Virus record (IMG/VR): IMGVR_UViG_2671180849_000011
Origin: a virus
Taxonomy: Duplodnaviria; Heunggongvirae; Uroviricota; Caudoviricetes
Direction: 5' to 3' (one strand)
Length of the DNA stretch: 13,205 bases
In this document: positions 266 to 12,913 of the stretch, piece after piece
Layout: every line of letters starts with the position of its first letter
How positions within the stretch are numbered: position 1 is the first letter of the stretch
The notes under the pieces: generated by a model
What the model was told of the DNA's origin: nothing
The model's input: only the letters and a program-made list of their open reading frames with translations
Databases searched by the model: none
Translations under genes and position numbers: made by a program

Positions 266-2392
266 TTAGAAAAGCTGGTTAGATTCCTGTGTGGCTTTCC
301 AATCCAACTGATCGCTGACTTCCTTCTGGATCACCCTGGCAATTCCACCCTCATCGATGGTTATCTCCCATTTGCCGGAAATCTCACCTTGTGGAACTAC
401 ATTAACCTGAGCAGGTTGATAGCCACCATTCTGAATAGCCGTACCAGTGCTAGGAGTAGGACGTGACGGGCTAATTGTTGGATATGGATTAAAGGAAGCT
501 CCTTTGCTGATGTAGCTATGGTTATAGGCCCCTGGCTTGGTCATAGCATCCTGCTCATCACTGAGAAGGCCTTTAGATTTAGCCCACTCCCCGAACTGAT
601 CAGCCTTGCTTTGCATCCATCCTCTGAACTTCTCACCTACCGTCTTAGCGCCAAGTGCGCCAGCGACACCAACACCCACACCTGCGGCACTGCCAGCGGC
701 TAATGCTGTTGTTGGGCTTCCAGCGACTGCCCCGCCAGCACCCTTAACGAGATTGCCCAGACCTGGAATCTTGCCTATCAGAGAAATCAGTTGGGTGACA
801 AGTGAAACAAATCCGGTTAGAGGGGAAAGCAGTGTAGTAATAACTTTCAGACCAGCTAAGCCGACTACCAATTTTCCGATAAGCTCGCCAACCTCTGATC
901 CGGTCATGCCGAACTCTTTAGCCTTGACCTCGATATATCCCTTAGCAAAGCCTACCCAATACATGATCTCCCGCATGGCAGCTCCGACTGCCTCACCAAA
1001 CTGTTTTGCCGCGCTCCCGCTGCCGTCCATATCAGTGGTGAGGTCTTCGAAGATGGAGATCAGAGATTCAGATAAGCTAATAACGCCATCTGCAGGATCC
1101 ACAACACCCATAAATTGAATCGCCAGCTCGTTAAAGCTGTTTTTCATGCGCTGCATTGCTACTTCTGGCTGTTTCATGGATTCAGCAAAAGCTTTAGTTT
1201 CTTTTGCAGCACCCCATATTTTCACCAAAGAAGGAAGTAGCTTGTCCAGGGTGATTTTGCCATCTTTAAGGGCTTTATCGAATTCCTGGGCATTCTTGAT
1301 GATTCCGGCATCAATAGCGGCCTGTTGGAAGTCCTGTTGTGAGCCTGCAAAGGCTTCTGACAGTTGGCCCCGCAGCTCTTCAGCCATAACTTTTCCCTTT
1401 GAAGCCATTTGTTGGACCGCAACAAGCGCCCTGTTCTGTTGCTCACCAGTAGCACCCACTGAGCGGCCTTTAATAGCCATAGCCTCAAAGAGAGCCTGCT
1501 TATCAGATTCCTTCATGGTGGGGGTAGCTGCAGCAAAGCGCATGTAGCCCCCTTGCATCTCCCGCTCATCCATCCCATAGGTGTAGGCTGTGTTCTTGAT
1601 AAAAGCCATCTGCTGATCAGTCTTGGCTTTATCATCCTTGTTCTGTGCCATCAAACCGAAGTAGGCACTGTTGCGATCTGCAAGGCTACCCATAGCACCA
1701 CTAACAGCACGCTGAACACCCCAGCCAGCGGCAGTAAGGCCAATGGCTATCTTGCCTAGTGTGGAGTTGATTTTGCCCAGGTTGTCATGCACCTTGCTGG
1801 CACCTGATGCCAGTTTATCCAGTCTGCTCTGAAATTTTCCGGCCTCTACTGTTGCCATCTTCATTTCAGATCTGAGCCGGGCCATTTTCTGATTATAGGT
1901 CTGCAGGTTAATAGCCCCTTTAGCATAATCAGCATTAACTCTCTGGATTCTGGATTGGAACTGAGCAACCAGGGAGCCATCAAACATGCTGCTGATTCGT
2001 GCACTGTTGGCCCCTACACGGGCCTTTCTGTGCTGAACATCTCCAACACTACGATCTAACAGTTTTTGTTGTCTGGCGGCCTCTCTGGCTTGCTGCTGAT
2101 AGAACTTGCGCATAGAGGAGAGCTCCGGATTATTGCCCCCGGTCAGACGGCTAACAGCCTGAGCACGTTGTTTCTTCTGTGCTCTGGCGATCTGCTCTTC
2201 CACCTTAGCGCGTGTTCTTTGTGTTCTGAGCACAGCCTGATTAGATTTAAAATCAGCTTTAGCTATATCGTCGGTAGCTTTCTTCCAGGATTTTTTATAA
2301 TCCTCAAGCCGTTTAACTTCTTTTCGCCAGCTGGATTTATCAGAATCCCAGTAAATAACGTTTGTTAGTCTGGCGATTTCCTTCATTGCCAT
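266..2392 (-). CDS. tail tape-measure-like protein (708 aa)
   Basis: Long ORF; N-terminal Q/R/A/K-rich predicted coiled coil; central segment (ALVAVQQMASKGKVMAEELRGQLSEAFAGS...) that I read as tape-measure-like; Gly/Ala/Val-rich hydrophobic stretch typical of tape measure proteins; RBS GGCGAGGTG before ATG at 2392; translationally coupled to the upstream gene. Confidence 0.55.
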   Translation of the reverse strand: MAMKEIARLTNVIYWDSDKSSWRKEVKRLEDYKKSWKKATDDIAKADFKSNQAVLRTQRTRAKVEEQIARAQKKQRAQAVSRLTGGNNPELSSMRKFYQQQAREAARQQKLLDRSVGDVQHRKARVGANSARISSMFDGSLVAQFQSRIQRVNADYAKGAINLQTYNQKMARLRSEMKMATVEAGKFQSRLDKLASGASKVHDNLGKINSTLGKIAIGLTAAGWGVQRAVSGAMGSLADRNSAYFGLMAQNKDDKAKTDQQMAFIKNTAYTYGMDEREMQGGYMRFAAATPTMKESDKQALFEAMAIKGRSVGATGEQQNRALVAVQQMASKGKVMAEELRGQLSEAFAGSQQDFQQAAIDAGIIKNAQEFDKALKDGKITLDKLLPSLVKIWGAAKETKAFAESMKQPEVAMQRMKNSFNELAIQFMGVVDPADGVISLSESLISIFEDLTTDMDGSGSAAKQFGEAVGAAMREIMYWVGFAKGYIEVKAKEFGMTGSEVGELIGKLVVGLAGLKVITTLLSPLTGFVSLVTQLISLIGKIPGLGNLVKGAGGAVAGSPTTALAAGSAAGVGVGVAGALGAKTVGEKFRGWMQSKADQFGEWAKSKGLLSDEQDAMTKPGAYNHSYISKGASFNPYPTISPSRPTPSTGTAIQNGGYQPAQVNVVPQGEISGKWEITIDEGGIARVIQKEVSDQLDWKATQESNQLF

Positions 2393-3572: not shown

Positions 3573-4058
3573 CTATTTGCGCTGCATTGCTTTCCGGACT
3601 TTATTGCTGTGGCGGCGGTAGATGAATATAAATTCGCGATAAGCACGACTACCGGGCTTAGGCAAACGTTGATTAAGCTCCTTACGTGGCAGGAGGTCGC
3701 TCAACAAGCCCCAGACATGAAAGCAGGTTACTTTTAATTCTTTTGCTATCTCTTCAATATTCATCCCGCAATTCCACATTAAAAGAGATTTGCGGCGGCG
3801 ATCTTCGAAGACATTTCTATCTCTATCTATTTCGTTATAGACACTGAGGGGAACTCGACACCGTGGATTCCAGGATTCTTCATATAGTTTTTGGACTTTC
3901 TCAAGTTTAACGCCTGTATATTCCGCCACGAATTCAGGGGTAAAGCCCTCGACTAATAAGTGTTTGGCCTGTCGTGTTGGTTGATCATCACTGGGGAGAT
4001 ATTTCTGCAGTGCTACCAGTTTTTCAAATTGGGAATCAGAAAGATCAGATTTGAACAT
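3573..4058 (-). CDS. hypothetical DNA-binding protein (161 aa) with two HTH-like segments
   Basis: ATG 4058 preceded by GGAG at 8-nt spacing; segments FTPEFVAEYTGVKLEKVQKL and GMNIEEIAKELKVTCFHVWGLL resemble HTH motifs; basic C-terminus. Confidence 0.5.
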   Translation of the reverse strand: MFKSDLSDSQFEKLVALQKYLPSDDQPTRQAKHLLVEGFTPEFVAEYTGVKLEKVQKLYEESWNPRCRVPLSVYNEIDRDRNVFEDRRRKSLLMWNCGMNIEEIAKELKVTCFHVWGLLSDLLPRKELNQRLPKPGSRAYREFIFIYRRHSNKVRKAMQRK

Positions 4059-4146
4059 GATTAATTCTCCGAACGTTTAAAAGATCAGGGCAATCAATCT
4101 AGTTCTAGTAATTCTATGTTTAGTTTATTTAGTTTATTTGGGGGTG

Positions 4147-4293
4147 TTAATAAGGGATGTCAGAATCATTTTCTTCATCTGCTGGATCTTCAGCTAACCA
4201 ACCACAATATTCTTCCCAATATGAAAAATGTTGTGATAGTTCATCTTCAAAATATTTTTCCTTTTCCAGGTAATAATCAAAATCGCCATACAT
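4147..4293 (-). CDS. small highly acidic aromatic-rich protein (48 aa), not in ORF track
   Basis: ATG 4293 with SD AAGGAAG at 6-nt spacing, stop TAA 4147-4149; translation MYGDFDYYLEKEKYFEDELSQHFSYWEEYCGWLAEDPADEENDSDIPY has 16 D/E versus 2 K and no R; fills the gap between two called genes on the same strand. Confidence 0.35.
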   Translation of the reverse strand: MYGDFDYYLEKEKYFEDELSQHFSYWEEYCGWLAEDPADEENDSDIPY

Positions 4294-4334
4294 TTTAAAC
4301 TTCCTTAAACAAAAAAATAAGATTATCAGTGTTT

Positions 4335-5231
4335 TTATTTAAACTCTAAAATGCCTTTTTTATTTTTTCTAACATTTCTCCACAATATTTCGGGATAATC
4401 TCCGCAGGTTTTATCTAACAATATTTCGAATCCCATCCCAATAAGCTTATTTGCAAAAATAAAAACAGGTCTGGTTAAATGCCAGTATTCTTCCGGTTTC
4501 CAGATTTCACCCTCTATTTTCCCTTTATGTTGGCTTACCTCTTCTGCGGTGTAAAAATCCTCCTGAATCTTTGACAAAAGGATCGGGCGACGTTTGTTTA
4601 AATCTTTGTATTTGCTTTCCCACAGTGATCGCATTATGCCTTTAGCCTCACTCTCACCCAGGACAATCCAGCCCCCATCGGTTACATCTTTCACAGGACG
4701 GCCCCGGCGTGGCTTGTCACTAACAGCGTTAATTTGAGGCGCTTTAGTGTCTTGGGTAGGCAATTGCACCACCTTAGCCTTTTTAGCTTGCTGTGTGGCT
4801 TGTTTTGGGGCTTCTTGCGGGTGTTTCTCTTCACTACCTGCATTGCTCATAGGTTGTATTCCTTGAGCGTCACACATTTTGCAGATTTGAGAAGGAGTAA
4901 TTAACAGTTTGTAATGATTAGATTTGCCTTTACTTTTAATTACTGAAATAAGCCCGGCATTTTCCAGAGTTTTGATAGATTCAATGATTTTTCTATCACT
5001 CACACCACATATTTTTGCTAAGGTCTGCTCTGAGATAAATATTTCTTGCCCGTTTAAATGAAAACCTGCCATTTTTCCATAGATTGTTACCTCTATCAGG
5101 TCTAAATTAAATCGCTCTTTTGTTTTTCCAGTCTTTTTATTAGCAATTGTTGTTGCTACTGGTTTATCAAAAGTATACTGAATGAGGCGTTCGAAATGGG
5201 GATTAAAAACCTCCCCGTAATTACTTGCCAT
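4335..5231 (-). CDS. winged-helix DNA-binding protein (298 aa), replication-initiator-like or antirepressor-like
   Basis: ATG at 5231 preceded by GGGGGA; N-terminal wHTH-like segment ISEQTLAKICGVSDRKIIESIKTLENAGLISV; central P/Q/K/A-rich linker with KPRRGRPVK (AT-hook-like); architecture recalls lambda O-type initiators (from memory, unverified). Confidence 0.5.
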   Translation of the reverse strand: MASNYGEVFNPHFERLIQYTFDKPVATTIANKKTGKTKERFNLDLIEVTIYGKMAGFHLNGQEIFISEQTLAKICGVSDRKIIESIKTLENAGLISVIKSKGKSNHYKLLITPSQICKMCDAQGIQPMSNAGSEEKHPQEAPKQATQQAKKAKVVQLPTQDTKAPQINAVSDKPRRGRPVKDVTDGGWIVLGESEAKGIMRSLWESKYKDLNKRRPILLSKIQEDFYTAEEVSQHKGKIEGEIWKPEEYWHLTRPVFIFANKLIGMGFEILLDKTCGDYPEILWRNVRKNKKGILEFK

Positions 5232-5244
5232 AGTTCCCCCACAG

Positions 5245-5460
5245 TTATTTATTAATGTTGTTGGTGTATTTAGCCAGCTCACGCTCAAGGCGGAGACGAT
5301 TCAGTTCTAAAATTGCCGCTTCAATGTGTGGATATTCTCCTTTGTGTTTACGAATAAATGCATAAACGGAAGTTTTTCGAAAGTTACCTTTAAGCACGTT
5401 CTCGACGATTTCGTCAGTAGTCCAGTTTACCAGCTGGCTTATCGGTCCGGTTTTAGCCAT
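5245..5460 (-). CDS. hypothetical small protein (71 aa)
   Basis: ATG 5460 preceded by SD AGGAGA at 7-nt spacing; stop 13 nt before the next start; basic, possibly DNA-binding. Confidence 0.5.
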   Translation of the reverse strand: MAKTGPISQLVNWTTDEIVENVLKGNFRKTSVYAFIRKHKGEYPHIEAAILELNRLRLERELAKYTNNINK

Positions 5461-5592
5461 GATTCAATCTCCTGTTAGCTCACTAACCTGTGCGATATAT
5501 GGTTAAAAAGAAACGGGAACTTAAGACAAGCCCCCGCATTTTTGTTTAAGGAAATTCACTATGATGAGAATTACCCTATGATTTATATTTTA

Positions 5593-5742
5593 TCAGCTAT
5601 TTGCGAGATTGTCAACAATCTTTTTGTATTTATCTATCATTTTTTCTTCAAGGTTGTCGATTGCAGCTACTCCGGCTATGTAGGCAACACCGCACCACAG
5701 TACAGCCAGGTTGATGATCGCTATAGCGTCGCTCAGTTCCAC
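5593..5742 (-). CDS. small single-pass membrane protein (49 aa, GTG start), not in ORF track
   Basis: GTG 5742 preceded by GGAGG at 5-nt spacing; translation VELSDAIAIINLAVLWCGVAYIAGVAAIDNLEEKMIDKYKKIVDNLANS is one hydrophobic helix plus charged tail; stop TGA 5593-5595. Confidence 0.3.
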   Translation of the reverse strand: MELSDAIAIINLAVLWCGVAYIAGVAAIDNLEEKMIDKYKKIVDNLANS

Positions 5743-5786
5743 GTTGACCTCCGGATCTGTTTCTCCCACTATCTATAATCTTATCA

Positions 5787-5808
5787 TATTGACAACCAAT
5801 TGTCAATA
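5787..5808. promoter_or_regulatory. palindromic operator overlapping candidate leftward promoter
   Basis: Perfect inverted repeat TTGACAA (5789-5795) - CCAA - TTGTCAA (5800-5806), arms extend to 9 bp; on the - strand TTGACA, 17-bp spacer, TAAGAT; a third half-site TTGTCAAT at 5929-5936. Confidence 0.4.
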
Positions 5809-6424
5809 GGAATCATTATCATTTAGGCGAGCTATAGGTACAAACAAGTCCACAGCAAAGGGGTAAGCATTATTAATGGCCCCTACCGTGTCAAAACCAA
5901 AGTCACTTATAGCATTTATGCAATAAGATTGTCAATGGCCCACAAGGGAGGGAGAGCACTTTTTGCCTTAAGCGCTCTAAAATCGATTCTAACGCGATTT
6001 AGAGGTCAGGTAATGCAATTGCACTACTCACACAAGTTAATGCAGCCAGAAGGCCATTTAGGGGCCTTATTTTCGATTTCTGAGCGTCCTGTTACGTGTG
6101 TGCATACACGGGCGCGCGGAATCCCTCGCTTAAACGGTCCGGATTGGAAACAGAAGTCTCTTATCCGGACTCCACATTATATAGCTACGTGCTATCGCAC
6201 TACGCTACCCACACACAGGCCGACGTAGTCGGTTTAGCTGTATAGCTAAAGTCACAGAGTGACCCACACACAGATTGCCTAAAGAGTCGCTAATGCTCTT
6301 TAGGCTTTCATTTGTGGGTTAAGCTTTTCCCTTAGAAAACCTTCCCCACTCTCTGATCCCTCCCCATTCCCCTTGGGGGGTTAGGGGGGGATCTGTTGTG
6401 TGATCTATTAATTTATCTATTAGA

Positions 6425-6645
6425 GTGAGAAATTTTCAGGGGTACTAGTGAGAAATCTTCGGTAGTAGTGGTGAGAAATTCTCAGGGGTGTGGGTAGGTA
6501 TGGTGGTTAAGTAGTGAGAAATCTTCAGTAGTTAGAGGCTGTGTATCATGGGGGCAATGACTGCAAAACGGGAAAGCATGACTGTATAAACACACAGGTG
6601 TGAAAATTCTTCACAGGTTAGCGACACCGGAAAAATCTTCAGTAG
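6425..6645. repeat. iteron-like direct repeats, six copies of about 18 bp (consensus GTGAGAAATCTTCAG(G/T)(G/A)G)
   Basis: Copies at 6425-6442, 6448-6465, 6471-6488 (exact 23-bp phasing), 6514-6531, 6598-6617 (degenerate), 6630-6645; preceded by G-run GGGGGGTTAGGGGGGG 6375-6390. Confidence 0.6.
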
Positions 6646-7887: not shown

Positions 7888-7946
7888 ATAAATAGGCATT
7901 AAATAGGGGATAAATAGGGGTTAATTGAGGGATAAATAAAAAGGGG
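7888..7946. repeat. five tandem 11-bp phased repeats (A/T)TAAAT(A/T)GGGG
   Basis: Units start at 7888, 7899, 7910, 7921, 7932 (exact 11-bp period); last unit merges into the terminator stem. Confidence 0.55.
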
Positions 7947-7959
7947 CCGTGATGGCCCC
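7931..7959 (-). terminator. rho-independent terminator of the membrane-protein gene
   Basis: Stem GGGGCC (7943-7948) / GGCCCC (7954-7959), loop GTGAT; - strand tail TTTTTATTTATC (complement of 7931-7942); 8 nt past stop codon 7968-7970. Confidence 0.6.
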
Positions 7960-7967
7960 CTGGTAGG

Positions 7968-8498
7968 TCAGAACAGTTTTTTGCTTTTTCTCCAACTAAC
8001 GCCGCGTTTGCCTATGCTCAGCCAGCCGCCAGCGAATCGGGTACCTGCGGTAACACTAGCTCCCCTGGTACCTACATGTGCATAAATACCTGCTCCACTG
8101 CTACCACCGCTTCTACGGCTTTTTCCGCCATCGATATCAAGGAGAACACAGATCGCATTCCACCAAAAGCCGATCACCCATATTGCAAATGCTAAGCCTA
8201 AAACGCCCCAGGTGACCGCCCACCCTTCCAGACTAGTGGGGAAGTAGAAAGCATTGAGAACAGCATTTATAGGGCGGATCAGGAGAAAATCTATAAAACC
8301 AGTATCCACATGAAACGGTCCATTGCCGAACTTGCTACTGCCAATAAATAAGGTAGCAGGGTAAAAGAAGATAGCCATTGCCCAAGGGCCAATAAGCAGG
8401 ATAGTAGCCCCGAACTGTGCGGCCTCCTTAAAGAACATTTTTACTATTGCTTTAAAAAGCTTTTTGTTTTCTGATTCTTTATCTTTCTGAAATAACAT
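7968..8498 (-). CDS. polytopic membrane protein (176 aa) with Gly/Ser/Arg-rich C-terminal tail
   Basis: ATG 8498 preceded by AAGGGG; about four hydrophobic segments; own terminator; position and type fit a superinfection-exclusion or abortive-infection moron (inference). Confidence 0.6.
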   Translation of the reverse strand: MLFQKDKESENKKLFKAIVKMFFKEAAQFGATILLIGPWAMAIFFYPATLFIGSSKFGNGPFHVDTGFIDFLLIRPINAVLNAFYFPTSLEGWAVTWGVLGLAFAIWVIGFWWNAICVLLDIDGGKSRRSGGSSGAGIYAHVGTRGASVTAGTRFAGGWLSIGKRGVSWRKSKKLF

Positions 8499-8509
8499 GA
8501 CGGTACCCC

Positions 8510-8527
8510 TTTGCGAGAAGTTGAATT
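8510..8527 (-). promoter_or_regulatory. conserved leader element copy 1, 12 nt upstream of ATG 8498
   Basis: + strand TTTGCGAGAAGTTGA (8510-8524) identical to 9052-9066 at the same distance from a start codon; 13/15 match to 126-140. Confidence 0.5.
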
Positions 8528-8555: not shown

Positions 8556-8816
8556 CTATTTATTCTTCTTAAATCTCCCATCCTCCTTTCTCTCGATATT
8601 GTGGTAGTCGGCATAGGCTTTCAGCCTTCTGTGCACGGTGGCGATCCCCACACCGAAGGTTTTAGCGATAACCTGTCGTGGTGTTCCCTCTTCAACCATC
8701 TTGTACATCTGTTCCGCTACATCCATTTGTGCGGCTATCTCCATTTGCTTTGCCTTAGCTTTAATTTCAGCTATCAGCTCTTCCCTCAGTCTCCTGATAT
8801 CTTTAGCCCCCGTCAT
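8556..8816 (-). CDS. small HTH DNA-binding regulator (86 aa)
   Basis: SD GAGGAG 3 nt before ATG 8816; N-terminal predicted coiled coil; C-terminal HTH TPRQVIAKTFGVGIATVHRRLK of the resolvase/Mor-like type (by eye). Confidence 0.6.
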   Translation of the reverse strand: MTGAKDIRRLREELIAEIKAKAKQMEIAAQMDVAEQMYKMVEEGTPRQVIAKTFGVGIATVHRRLKAYADYHNIERKEDGRFKKNK

Positions 8817-8839
8817 AAACTCCTCTCAATGCTGTTCAT
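8813..8839 (-). CDS. 8-codon upstream micro-ORF (MNSIERSL) overlapping the HTH gene start
   Basis: ATG 8839 preceded by GCGGAG; stop TGA 8813-8815 overlaps ATG 8816 (ATGA); lies in an 18-bp direct repeat that duplicates the SD-start region. Confidence 0.2.
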   Translation of the reverse strand: MNSIERSL

Positions 8840-8916
8840 AAACTCCGCTCAATCATGATTAGTAGAACATCCAGGATAGCCAGACCTATTAAAAATGCTT
8901 TGCCTCCTTTGCCCAT
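8836..8916 (-). CDS. 26-aa hydrophobic micro-ORF (MGKGGKAFLIGLAILDVLLIMIERSL)
   Basis: ATG 8916 preceded by GGAGG at 6-nt spacing, 1 nt after stop of the upstream micro-ORF; stop TGA 8836-8838 overlaps ATG of the 8-codon uORF (ATGA). Confidence 0.25.
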   Translation of the reverse strand: MGKGGKAFLIGLAILDVLLIMIERSL

Positions 8917-8917
8917 C

Positions 8918-9040
8918 TCACACCTCCACACACAGAGCTAACATCAGGGCTAACACTCCAACCACCTCAATTGCCTTAACAATGTGTGGGTGATGAAACC
9001 TGGCCTTTTGCCATGCGCTGGCACTGTTCTTGATACCCAT
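8918..9040 (-). CDS. 40-aa micro-ORF with C-terminal hydrophobic helix (track ORF extends to 9145)
   Basis: Internal ATG 9040 preceded by SD AAGGTGA at 5-nt spacing and by leader element copy 2; ATG 9145 has no SD and the N-terminal extension is low-complexity. Confidence 0.3.
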   Translation of the reverse strand: MGIKNSASAWQKARFHHPHIVKAIEVVGVLALMLALCVEV

Positions 9041-9051
9041 AACTATCACCT

Positions 9052-9069
9052 TTTGCGAGAAGTTGATTT
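9052..9069 (-). promoter_or_regulatory. conserved leader element copy 2, 12 nt upstream of ATG 9040
   Basis: + strand TTTGCGAGAAGTTGA (9052-9066) identical to 8510-8524; GCGAGAAGTTGATTT (9055-9069) is 14/15 identical to 126-140. Confidence 0.5.
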
Positions 9070-9336
9070 GTTTGTTCGGTTGGGGTGCTATCAATGATCC
9101 CCTTCCTTGATTCGAACTATAGCCGGGTAAATCACTGGAAAACATTGATATTGATCAAAAGATATCTATCACGAATGAAAAAGTTATGATAGATGATAGG
9201 AGTCGCATAGCTGCGACCTTGGCTGTGTGCCAAGCCTGCAAAGCAGGTCAGGGATGAGGTGACGTATTGATGGGATTGATAGAGGTCTGAAAATACCGTT
9301 ACCACGCTAATTATTAGAATTTATATAATCAGGATG

Positions 9337-9365
9337 TTGACAATGTGAGTAAATACTGATATAAT
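9337..9365 (+). promoter_or_regulatory. perfect-consensus sigma70 promoter (TTGACA - 17 bp - TATAAT) with AT-rich upstream region
   Basis: TTGACA 9337-9342, exactly 17-bp spacer, TATAAT 9360-9365; AT-rich 9305-9335 (UP-element-like); faces the capsid genes. Confidence 0.65.
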
Positions 9366-10192: not shown

Positions 10193-11239
10193 ATGGCTAA
10201 GAAAGAATTCGAAGTTCGCGATCTGTGTGGTCTGATTAAAGATATCCCGCCGGATAACATGATTATTTCTGCAATGGATATCTTCAACACTACTGCTCTG
10301 TGCAATACCTTTAAATTTGAATATGACAAAGTTCGCCAGGTGAAACAAACCGCTTTCGGTCAGTATCCGCGCTACGGTGAACAGATGGCTACCATTACCG
10401 CAGATGAGCGTGAAACGGGCACGGGTGATATGGCATTCACTGCCGCATCAAGTGCTATTTATCCTTCTGACTGGCAGGGTATCCGCGTTCCTGGCAAAGA
10501 TTCCGAAGAGAATCTAGAGTCTGTAACCGCTCGTCGTGTTATTCAGCTGGGCGAAGGCTTACGCCAGACCCACGAAGAAGCACGCCAGCTTGCTCTCTTT
10601 GAGAACAAAATTATCCTCACCAAGGGTAAAGAACTGAATGTGTGCGAACTGCTGGGCGCACAGCAAACCACTTCAGAAGTGGATCTAACTCAAGATATCC
10701 TTAAACAGCTGCAGGACCTGGTTGCACTGAGCAAGGTTAAACAGCGTGGTGTCGTTCGTGCCCTGCGTGGTTTCACCCTGTTCTGCCGTGCTGAACTGTT
10801 TACCGCTATTCAGACTGATGAACTGCTCCGTAAAGTGCTGTTGTTCGGCAATCAGAACATTACCGACAAAGGTCTGATGTTCCCTGAGGATATTCTGCCG
10901 GGCTTCCCGACCTTCCGCATTCCGGGCTTAGCCCTGCGTGTGGTGCAAATGGATAGTCTGCCAGAGAATACTGCTTATCTGGTCCCACAGTTCCAGCCGC
11001 ATGCGTTAGGCGATATGGTGGGCGTTTATACTCAATTTTTCGGCCCTTGCGCTCGCAACCTGAAGCTGGCAAACGGCGCTGCACGTGAAGCTTTCATGTA
11101 TATGGAAGAGTCCAGAGGCAAACGCGAAATCTTCGTTGAATCCTCTTATGCTTTCATGAACATGATGCCTGAAGTTGTGGTTAAAGTGAGTGTTAAAAAC
11201 ACCGCCGCCGCTGCTCTGGCAAAAGCCAAGGCTAAATAA
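10193..11239 (+). CDS. major capsid protein, lambda gpE-like family (348 aa)
   Basis: ATG 10193 preceded by AAGGAGG at 6-nt spacing (track ORF starts at an upstream TTG); strong codon bias; collinear matches to lambda gpE as I recall it (FKF near N-terminus, LPENT versus LPDNT, C-terminal V-S-V); size fits. Confidence 0.6.
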   Translation: MAKKEFEVRDLCGLIKDIPPDNMIISAMDIFNTTALCNTFKFEYDKVRQVKQTAFGQYPRYGEQMATITADERETGTGDMAFTAASSAIYPSDWQGIRVPGKDSEENLESVTARRVIQLGEGLRQTHEEARQLALFENKIILTKGKELNVCELLGAQQTTSEVDLTQDILKQLQDLVALSKVKQRGVVRALRGFTLFCRAELFTAIQTDELLRKVLLFGNQNITDKGLMFPEDILPGFPTFRIPGLALRVVQMDSLPENTAYLVPQFQPHALGDMVGVYTQFFGPCARNLKLANGAAREAFMYMEESRGKREIFVESSYAFMNMMPEVVVKVSVKNTAAAALAKAKAK

Positions 11240-11580: not shown

Positions 11581-11654
11581 CGATAGATAGCCCTGTCTTT
11601 TTATCAGAATTCACACAGGGCCACCAAAAGATTCAATTTGGAGGCATGTTTAAT

Positions 11655-12458
11655 ATGGCTAGTGATGCTCTGACAGCTGCAAAACAAGCTGAGTCGAGAT
11701 CTCCTGCATTCACTGTTATGTGTGGGGGATATTCACAAAACAAAAATATAATGGATGGCTTCAACTATACCGATAATGTGGCTATCTTCTTTGACTCTAT
11801 CTCTGATGTCAGCTATTCGTTCCCTGTTGAGAAATCGAGCTATGCGGTCGAGGATGGCACCACCATGTCAGACCATGCCGTCATTAAAGATAAATCTGTC
11901 AGCTTTACGGGTATTATTACCTCTTCCCCTCACATTATCCGGAAAGAGAACTACATCGACCGGAACACTGATCCAGATAATCCCCGTGAATCTATGCGCC
12001 CTGCTGCCGCTGTTCAGGCACTTATGGAAATGAGAGACAAGCGCCAGCTAGTTAGCCTGGTAAGTGAAGATGCCGGACTCCTTGAGAACTTCATCATGAC
12101 GAAATGTGAAGTTAAGCGTAGCTCTTCCTCTGGCGACTGCATCACTATTGATTGCACTTTTGAAGAATTCCGCACCTTCAAGGTGAAGATGGTCGAAAAT
12201 GCCGGAGTTTTCACTAACAGTAAGAAGGTGAATAAAACACAGCAAAAGGGTGCTGTTAACAGTGCTAAAGAGGGTAGTAACGCTGGCAATGCTGCTACGA
12301 AATCTACCAGAGCTAAGCATCGCGGGGAATATGCACAGGGAGAGGCAGCGGGAAAGATTGCCGCAGGTGATAAGTCTGTCGTGTCGAATGAGTTCCACGA
12401 AACGATGATTGATAAGGCCAACATGTTGCTTGATGACATCACGGAGATCAACAAATGA
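11655..12458 (+). CDS. hypothetical protein (267 aa; 270 aa if ATG 11646)
   Basis: GGAGG 11640-11644 is 1 nt from ATG 11646 but 10 nt from ATG 11655; Ser/Thr-rich; stop overlaps next start (ATGA). Confidence 0.55.
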   Translation: MASDALTAAKQAESRSPAFTVMCGGYSQNKNIMDGFNYTDNVAIFFDSISDVSYSFPVEKSSYAVEDGTTMSDHAVIKDKSVSFTGIITSSPHIIRKENYIDRNTDPDNPRESMRPAAAVQALMEMRDKRQLVSLVSEDAGLLENFIMTKCEVKRSSSSGDCITIDCTFEEFRTFKVKMVENAGVFTNSKKVNKTQQKGAVNSAKEGSNAGNAATKSTRAKHRGEYAQGEAAGKIAAGDKSVVSNEFHETMIDKANMLLDDITEINK

Positions 12459-12913
12459 GTCCGAAAGTCCGTTGCACCATAGACAAGCGCATGATGGATA
12501 AGCTGCATAAAGAGCTCTCACAGATGGAAGGTGTAGCGGTTGGCTGGGATGACGGGAAACACTATAGCGGCCTGAATTACGCCACACTGGCAGCAATTCA
12601 TTCTGAGGGGTGGGGTGATCTGCCTAAGCGCTCCTTTATGGAATCTGCCCACGCAGCAATGCTCTATGAGAGCCTGAGACACACAAAAGCCCTGATTAAT
12701 GCAATCGTAAAGGGTGGGAGCTCTGAGGCCGTCAGGAAGCGAATAGGCAAGCGATACGCCGACATTCTGGAGACTATCCTGATTAGTGGGCAATTCAGCA
12801 ACAACAAGGTTTCCCCACAATGGGCAAGCTATAAAGGCTTCAATGATGCCATGCGCCACTATGATGATTTGATCGGTGCAATCAAATACTGGTCAAATGT
12901 GGGGAGAGGTTGA
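12455..12913 (+). CDS. hypothetical protein (152 aa), translationally coupled
   Basis: ATG 12455 overlaps upstream stop (ATGA); GGAG 8 nt upstream; no recognisable motif. Confidence 0.55.
   Translation: MSPKVRCTIDKRMMDKLHKELSQMEGVAVGWDDGKHYSGLNYATLAAIHSEGWGDLPKRSFMESAHAAMLYESLRHTKALINAIVKGGSSEAVRKRIGKRYADILETILISGQFSNNKVSPQWASYKGFNDAMRHYDDLIGAIKYWSNVGRG

Follow-up and report, generated by a model that had tools for sequence, protein, structure and literature searches.

Two predicted small membrane peptide genes and a polymorphic 23-bp junction duplication ahead of a helix-turn-helix gene in a phage-like Escherichia coli plasmid

The virus record IMGVR_UViG_2671180849_000011 comprises 13,205 nucleotides (nt) and is called the window throughout, which means the whole stretch of DNA that was analysed. 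On its minus strand it carries a densely packed chain of four open reading frames (ORFs), namely ORF40, ORF26, an 8-codon ORF and the gene of an 86-amino acid (aa) helix-turn-helix (HTH) protein. Here, we found that ORF40 and ORF26 are, as judged from their codon-level constraint, bona fide genes of single-helix small membrane peptides, which gene callers mostly miss and for which translation is predicted. The 8-codon ORF and the repeated Shine-Dalgarno (SD)-start module are, judging from their distribution among related elements, a polymorphic duplication scar and not a designed regulatory device. The best explanation for these data jointly, which we consider rather probable, is a compact operon with two real peptide genes, in which the 8-codon ORF is the nearly neutral footprint of a duplication.

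Organization of the minus-strand chain

The chain consists of the following members:

9040..8918, minus strand: ORF40, 40 aa (MGIKNSASAWQKARFHHPHIVKAIEVVGVLALMLALCVEV, then stop)
8916..8836, minus strand: ORF26, 26 aa (MGKGGKAFLIGLAILDVLLIMIERSL, then stop)
8839..8813, minus strand: 8-codon ORF, MNSIERSL and stop, with an ATGA overlap at either end
8816..8556, minus strand: HTH gene, 86 aa

From these coordinates, it can be seen that the junction spacings along the chain are +1 nt (ORF40/ORF26), -4 nt (ORF26/8-codon ORF) and -4 nt (8-codon ORF/HTH gene). The start of ORF26 is preceded by GGAGG (8927-8923), which is separated from the ATG by 6 nt. At the two following junctions, the bases are shared within an ATGA: the TGA of ORF26 overlaps with the ATG of the 8-codon ORF and the TGA of the latter overlaps with the ATG of the HTH gene. 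The original prediction had described the same four-membered chain with the same junctions, and reading and translation of the strand confirmed this description. Such packing is not special to the locus since tight junctions are the norm throughout the element (a gap of 1 nt at 2581/2583, a gap of 3 nt at 2392/2396 and an ATGA overlap at 12455-12458).

For comparative purposes, 27 loci were aligned, comprising the window, L001-L014, L016-L025, L133 and L134. The 26 relatives are all E. coli plasmids or contigs of ~13-14 kb, but the 27 loci are not all independent isolates, and certain loci represent one isolate from two sources. L010-L014 constitute a divergent lineage, in which the HTH protein is 86-87% identical to that of the window lineage. 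An unbroken chain of overlaps leading from ORF26 (or a truncated form of it) to the HTH start was found in 24/27 loci and is broken in L008, L019 and L133. The divergent lineage joins ORF26 to the HTH gene by another overlap (ATGTCTAA); in L010-L014, ORF26 encodes 28 aa and its TAA stop overlaps with codons 2-3 of the HTH gene.

ORF40 and ORF26 as genes of small membrane peptides

The ORF40 product combines a basic N-terminus with a C-terminal hydrophobic helix (IEVVGVLALMLALCV), and the ORF26 product is composed of MGKGGK, a hydrophobic helix and ERSL. Each peptide has a single hydrophobic core, with a top 15-residue hydropathy of 2.71 for ORF40 and of 2.92 for ORF26. No locus has a disrupted ORF40 (27/27 intact), and the operon probably begins with this cistron. 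An N-terminally extended version of 75 aa (ATG at 9145) was rejected since its frame is broken by indels in the relatives, and thus 9040 is the real start. For ORF26, the duplex of its GGAGG with the anti-SD sequence is strong (-10.6 kcal/mol).

When the window lineage was compared with the divergent lineage in the frame of ORF40, the proportion of synonymous differences (pS) amounted to up to 0.45-0.59 and that of non-synonymous differences (pN) to 0.06-0.12, which gives a pN/pS ratio of 0.10-0.27. In the two other frames, this ratio was ~0.9 or higher in 5/6 pairs and 0.37 in one, and Fisher tests for coding selection yielded p = 1e-6 and 5e-4. For ORF26, we obtained an in-frame pN/pS of 0.12-0.44 (Fisher p = 0.003-0.03), with values well over 1 in frame 2 but only 0.29-0.84 in frame 1. 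Its variation includes synonymous changes among the leucine codons CTG, TTA and TTG as well as exchanges of one hydrophobic residue for another. The HTH gene gave a pN/pS of 0.07-0.27, so that ORF40 and ORF26 are under comparable constraint. The two longer micro-ORFs that had been noticed ahead of the HTH gene, ORF40 and ORF26, therefore turned out to be conserved real genes of small hydrophobic peptides, which are packed stop-to-start with it.

L010 and L012 carry, at positions 1311-1418 of each (L010:1311-1418 and L012:1311-1418), an additional ORF of 35 aa, which encodes an acidic, helical peptide (MSQAEMIIKAEELLERLQKAMDDAWNLIEELHEED) and precisely separates ORF40 from ORF26. The divergent lineage has two haplotypes of this ORF, which differ by 4 synonymous and 1 non-synonymous changes. 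Because this lineage has an extra gene with mostly synonymous differences, the region looks like a string of real small genes with gain and loss of cassettes.

Family searches with ORF40 and ORF26 did not yield any match in Pfam (E to 0.1), NCBIfam (E to 10), PADLOC (E to 1) and PHROGs (E to 0.01), and in these four databases there was no match to described toxin families either (Hok/Gef, Ldr, Ibs, TisB, ShoB and others). As a called protein, ORF40 occurs in this element family only, and a tblastn search of phage genomes with ORF40 gave a best E of ~6, which is noise.

ORF26 occurs in two frameshifted forms. One additional T in L016, L017 and L021-L023 leads to a 22-aa product, and the lack of one T in L008, L019 and L133 leads to an 8-aa product. 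These frameshifts are not mere sequencing errors since each variant recurs in independent assemblies. Repeated independent frameshifts are often seen in toxic genes, and they are one of the reasons to consider small membrane toxins, with the HTH protein as regulator or antidote, as an alternative explanation. Loss of a labile HTH repressor that controls its own synthesis would then expose the membrane to damage by ORF26, ORF40 or both, and the whole would work as a plasmid-addiction or an abortive module. Each of these short peptides has a single hydrophobic helix and a charged end, and both are within the size range of type I toxins (a single hydrophobic helix, <60 aa). Their genes are tightly linked to the HTH gene and always inherited together with it, the plasmid that carries them is small and requires stabilisation, and there is an operator-like TGATAG cluster at the promoter (see below). 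However, no similarity to known toxin families was seen in Pfam, NCBIfam and PADLOC, and no antisense promoter or known antitoxin RNA was found. On the opposite strand inside the ORFs, there was no sigma-70-like promoter in a consensus scan, which may miss a weak promoter, and the sole promoter-like site was that at 9337-9365 (plus strand). Moreover, ORF40 is disrupted in no locus (0/27), purifying selection on the peptides equals that on the regulator, and the peptide genes are the leading cistrons of an operon and not a stand-alone toxin locus. The heavy translational repression that is typical of type I systems is also absent, the upstream cistrons having good SDs and open mRNA. We regard a toxin module, the other reading put forward in the original prediction, as an unlikely explanation.

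The 23-bp tandem duplication and the 8-codon ORF

The junction between ORF26 and the HTH gene is present in two copies:

8859..8837, minus strand: duplication copy 1 (ATCATGATTGAGCGGAGTTTATG), with the C-terminus and stop of ORF26, a degenerate SD and the ATG of the 8-codon ORF
8836..8814, minus strand: duplication copy 2 (AACAGCATTGAGAGGAGTTTATG), with the functional SD GAGAGGAG and the ATG of the HTH gene

In the original prediction, an 18-bp direct repeat had been noted, which places the SD-ATGA unit twice in the chain. We recovered this repeat at 8813-8830 and 8836-8853 (17/18 identical, spacing 23), but the true unit is bigger and consists of 23 bp, the two copies of which are arranged head-to-tail and are identical at 19/23 positions. 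In the entire window, the 17/18 repeat is the sole one of such quality, and it did not arise by chance since 0/100 Markov shuffles yielded one. Tandem Repeats Finder missed the 23-bp x2 array even at a minimum score of 30, and the array was defined by reading, repeat search and the shuffle test. The IERSL ending that ORF26 and the 8-codon peptide have in common is real, but it is a direct consequence of the duplicated coding sequence. Similarly, a mini-ORF that reaches from the ORF26 stop to the HTH start arises automatically because the duplicated unit holds both an SD and the ATGA.

The duplication was found in 18/27 loci and is absent in 9/27 (L003, L008, L009, L010-L014 and L133), and the 8-codon ORF only occurs alongside it. 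Conservation of the reading frames in homologues, which had been suggested as a check of the chain, thus holds for ORF40 and ORF26 with their low in-frame pN/pS, but not for the 8-codon ORF, which 9/27 loci lack. In the HTH tree, L010-L014 are the outgroups and L008/L133 are basal to the main clade, and neither group has the duplication. L003 and L009 also lack it, although they are nested inside the duplication clade, and this position therefore indicates secondary loss or recombination. Since both ORF26 haplotypes exist with and without the duplication, it was gained and later lost or recombined away.

Sequence comparison of the two copies with single-copy alleles indicated that copy 1 is exactly the L003-type single junction and that copy 2 matches the L008-type junction at 22/23 positions. 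Such a pattern would be expected if the conserved junction had undergone unequal exchange or slippage. Copy 2 is invariant in 18/18 carriers of the duplication. The SD portion of copy 1 differs among the carriers (GAGCGGAG, GAGATGAG, GAGCTGAG and AAGCGGAG), and its calculated anti-SD duplex has a stability of -6.1 kcal/mol in 6/18 carriers and of -2.7 kcal/mol in 12/18, for a background mean of -2.35 kcal/mol. According to these calculations, decay has reduced the SD of the 8-codon ORF to the background level in 12/18 carriers.

Translation initiation at the HTH gene

The HTH protein has an N-terminal helix, which is followed by an HTH of the resolvase/Hin type. Residues 30-65 match Pfam HTH_7 with 27.5 bits (gathering cut-off 23.8), and the Hin DNA-binding domain 1hcr was matched with E = 3.5e-4. 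A recombinase catalytic domain is absent, and the HTH protein is thus a predicted stand-alone DNA binder.

The HTH gene has a strong SD of its own (duplex -8.6 kcal/mol) with a mean unpaired probability of ~0.45. For the junction RNA (156 nt), the minimum free energy was -26.4 kcal/mol compared with a shuffle mean of -33.8 kcal/mol (z = +2.1), and 199/200 shuffles folded at least as well. No terminator-like site was detected on the minus strand between 8800 and 9100, and there was no Rfam match to a leader or antitoxin RNA in the region. With a strong SD in open RNA, these calculations suggest that translation of the HTH gene depends at most partially on upstream translation. A programmed frameshift that would fuse ORF26 to the HTH protein was also considered and dropped since reading of the junction did not reveal a canonical slippery heptamer.

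An attenuation-type or obligatory leader mechanism is not supported since the RNA is unstructured, there is no terminator or Rfam element and the HTH SD is strong. The idea of leader-peptide coupling, with which the chain had originally been interpreted, does not hold in this regulatory sense; the 8-codon ORF is missing in 9/27 loci and its SD has decayed.

A softer version of this concept is a relay tuned by the duplication, in which ribosome traffic through ORF26 and the 8-codon ORF sets the translation of the HTH gene and in which selection favours the duplication because it adjusts dosage or provides insulation. Most loci carry the duplication (18/27), and stop/start overlaps are retained, directly or via the relay, in 24/27 loci. 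The duplication alleles also have the better SD (GAGAGGAG, -8.6 kcal/mol vs -6.1 kcal/mol in the single-copy L003/L009), and their ribosome-binding site (RBS) is unpaired with a probability of 0.44-0.48 vs 0.12-0.30 in L003/L009. However, the single-copy alleles of L008/L133 have an equally strong SD without any duplication, and the HTH gene is probably able to initiate independently. Alternative hairpins, a terminator or an SD-sequestering structure were not found, and MNSIERSL involves neither a regulatory codon run nor a known arrest motif. Finally, 9/27 loci, the outgroups among them, do not have the mini-ORF, and decay is seen in its SD. Taken together, we regard a selected relay as quite unlikely.

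Control region, operon end and cassette slot

The operon runs in the order ORF40, ORF26, 8-codon ORF, HTH gene, 176-aa membrane protein and terminator-like hairpin. In addition to the chain, it involves the following features:

9043..9282, no strand assigned: control region with a TGATAG/CTATCA hexamer cluster and TATAGT
9052..9066 and 8510..8524, minus strand: two copies of the 15-nt motif TCAACTTCTCGCAAA, directly 5' of the SDs of ORF40 and of the cassette gene
7968..8498, minus strand: cassette gene, the last cistron, encoding the 176-aa multi-helix membrane protein
7941..7961, minus strand: intrinsic-terminator-like hairpin and T-run, end of the operon
L009:339-926, L005:2821-3531 and L010:1814-2491: the cassette slot in relatives

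The hexamers TGATAG/CTATCA are concentrated in the control region, where 7/19 of the window total lie inside 240 nt (9043-9282); they include an inverted repeat, ATCTATCA-N15-TGATAGAT, at 9199..9164. From its sequence, this cluster probably represents putative operators, and the HTH protein is possibly the binder. TATAGT (9121..9116) is conserved in every aligned locus whose sequence reaches it, including L010-L014, and is likely to be the -10 element of the operon promoter. The divergent control region (9043-9365) also harbours a perfect sigma-70 consensus promoter (TTGACA-17-TATAAT with TG) at 9337-9365 of the plus strand, which is directed at the capsid genes over a leader of ~480 nt. In L001, L005, L018, L020 and L025, the 5' leader of the operon carries a 47-nt insertion (between window positions 9088 and 9087) with two hairpin-forming short palindromes (GGGGTGACTGAAAGTCACC and CTGGCATAGCCAG). 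A separate upstream segment of ~60 nt (window ~9200-9260) is present in some loci only.

The two copies of the 15-nt motif sit in a 21-nt repeat (90% identical). At least the first 13 nt of the motif (TCAACTTCTCGCA) are invariant in all loci examined, with any cassette type and with the divergent lineage included. An exact scan of IMG/VR for TCAACTTCTCGCAAA gave 106 single, evidently chance matches and none with two copies. Possible roles of the motif are control of translation as an operator, processing at this site or anchoring of recombination.

The slot behind the HTH gene is occupied by at least three unrelated cassette types in close relatives: a multi-helix membrane protein of 176, 173 or 179 aa, a protein of 195 aa whose N-terminus resembles a signal peptide and a protein of 225 or 236 aa with an N-terminal helix. 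The family of the 176-aa protein is very small: an exhaustive search of 1.84 billion proteins with a hidden Markov model of its alignment returned just 6 representatives and no functional lead. The AlphaFold model of the 176-aa protein is poor (predicted local distance difference test score, pLDDT, 48). Its C-terminal tail is conserved (VYAHVGTRG...WRKSKKLF) and is invariant in the 173-179 aa type. Cargo for exclusion or defence may accumulate in this slot.

The location of the peptide genes and of the 176-aa gene in one operon, and the fact that all these products are predicted to be membrane-embedded, might imply that the peptides assist the membrane protein at the operon end as accessory subunits, in the manner of KdpF or CydX. 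Inspection of the slot argues against this possibility. ORF40, ORF26 and the HTH gene are constant, but the last gene is swapped, with at least three unrelated cassettes in its place, and the ORF26 haplotypes do not track the cassette type. We consider a subunit function highly improbable. ORF40 and ORF26 most likely encode small inner-membrane proteins of a maintenance or regulatory operon of the element and not cassette partners.

The element and its relatives

The window represents a complete circular element of ~13.2 kb, which is collinear end-to-end with the 13,283-bp plasmid NZ_AP045055. Its relatives at the DNA level are only E. coli plasmids and contigs of 13.2-13.9 kb with 88-96% identity, and homologues of the HTH protein are confined to E. 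coli contigs of ~13-14 kb. NZ_CP043822 (39.6 kb) contains the element three times, and further carriers are E. coli E275a (pE275a_13, NZ_CP035869) and strain 190 (NZ_CP020521). A DNA search of the INPHARED phage collection with the region of the ORF chain (near and distant modes) gave 0 matches, and scans of IMG/VR and the GTDB representative genomes with the HTH and major capsid proteins gave 0 relatives. In a scan of JGI metagenomes, two further close relatives were found and nothing else. Outside the operon, the following genes were assigned:

10193-11239, plus strand: major capsid protein
11646-12458, plus strand: 'baseplate' protein
12455-12913, plus strand: tail-completion/Neck1-like protein
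266-2392, minus strand: tape-measure protein, 708 aa
4335-5288, minus strand: Rep-like HTH_36 protein

The tape-measure protein shares just ~26% identity with its counterparts in rV5-like phages. Neither a terminase nor a portal protein was recognised among the window ORFs given to PHROGs or Pfam, and our literature searches found no description of this 13-kb E. coli plasmid family. So far, the element has been seen in E. coli alone, and its features resemble those of a plasmid-type phage satellite not described before or of a minimal defective phage-plasmid.

Between positions 5500 and 7900 (~2.4 kb, 18% of the element), the window lacks convincing ORFs, and the RefSeq relatives are likewise unannotated there. 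Nonetheless, this stretch is 86-93% conserved. It contains a 23-bp repeat (x2.9) at 6424-6489 and a 22-bp repeat (x2.3) at 7888-7938, and an Rfam search of the stretch gave no match. An origin, iterons or a packaging site may be located here, or the stretch may specify a long non-coding RNA.

A remoter element (L132, positions 3865-6483 of an 18.9-kb Logan contig from SRR33442656) carries a 46%-identical homologue of the 176-aa protein together with a string of small genes, which encode a 40-aa product of the Lambda_Kil family, a 42-aa peptide and membrane peptides of 79 and 66 aa. The 42-aa peptide resembles ORF40 in its layout (basic N-terminus, hydrophobic C-terminus), but with E = 0.23 homology is not claimed.

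Taken together, the surrounding element is odder than the ORF chain itself: a plasmid with capsid and tape-measure genes, a swappable slot, the 15-nt motif and a 2.4-kb ORF-poor stretch.

Discussion

Our data argue for a compact operon with two real peptide genes and a nearly neutral duplication at the junction to the HTH gene. A nearly neutral duplication would be expected to come and go and to let its upstream SD decay, as is seen here. In prokaryotes, termination-reinitiation coupling via ATGA overlaps is widespread (PMC6728339, PMC10666635, PMC12548453), and ordinary coupling of this kind is plausible here from the arrangement of the ORFs. Ribosomes that end ORF26 would re-initiate at the overlapping AUG, read 8 codons and stop at the following AUGA, where they would start once more, now with the HTH gene. 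Direct ribosome loading on the strong, unstructured HTH SD would also be possible. In duplication alleles, the mini-ORF would then act as a passive relay.

Several points weigh against this interpretation. The frameshifts within T-runs affect ORF26 in 8/27 loci, and ORF26 may therefore be dispensable or at times selected against. Translation of the three short ORFs, and coupling among them, are predictions from the sequence. In the duplication alleles, the HTH RBS is stronger and more accessible than in the single-copy L003/L009, which leaves room for a modest adaptive effect of the duplication on the HTH dosage. Finally, the diversity is shallow (HTH identity of at least ~86% among all relatives), and because of this the invariance of the 8-codon ORF inside the duplication clade is uninformative either way.

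When compared with coupled gene pairs of E. coli, such as trpE-trpD and trpB-trpA, the chain is similar in its co-directional order, its -4 overlaps and 1-nt gap and the location of the SD within the upstream gene, and as in other overlapping pairs the arrangement is kept in most relatives. In contrast to these pairs, one member of the chain has just 8 codons and was born of a junction duplication, and coupling is predicted here. The leaders trpL, ermCL and tnaC also are very short ORFs directly upstream of and overlapping a gene, but here there are no alternative RNA structures or a terminator, and the upstream ORF is unconserved and duplication-born. Enterobacterial membrane proteins of <50 aa (KdpF, CydX, AcrZ, MgtS) resemble ORF40 and ORF26 in size, in the single helix and in their operon location, and they share with them the annotation misses and codon-level conservation as evidence (bioRxiv 10.1101/511675). 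However, ORF40 and ORF26 have no sequence relationship with them and no fixed membrane partner, and they are located on a phage-like plasmid. With hok/mok/sok and other type I loci, the chain has in common a small hydrophobic peptide, possible coupling to an upstream overlapping ORF and a plasmid location. It differs from them in that there is no family match, no detected antisense RNA or promoter and no long structured mRNA, and in that an HTH gene follows.

A more far-reaching scenario, which we consider very unlikely, is that ORF40, ORF26 and the HTH protein form an undescribed membrane-linked switch (for addiction, exclusion or induction sensing) of an undescribed family of plasmid-borne E. 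coli phage satellites with capsid and tape-measure genes, in which gain and loss of the duplication would be a quick dial on regulator dosage.

Our findings do not overturn the current understanding: the gene packing is tidy but ordinary, and two small-protein genes are newly recognised. Since duplication of an SD-ATGA junction yields a perfectly 'coupled' mini-ORF without selection, caution is needed when regulation is deduced from such chains. For annotation, the result is of value since the genes of ORF40 and ORF26 are absent in 9/9 RefSeq/GenBank records of the plasmid family examined. The two peptides are the sole constant companions of the HTH regulator, and they are thus reasonable first targets for the study of this phage-like plasmid.

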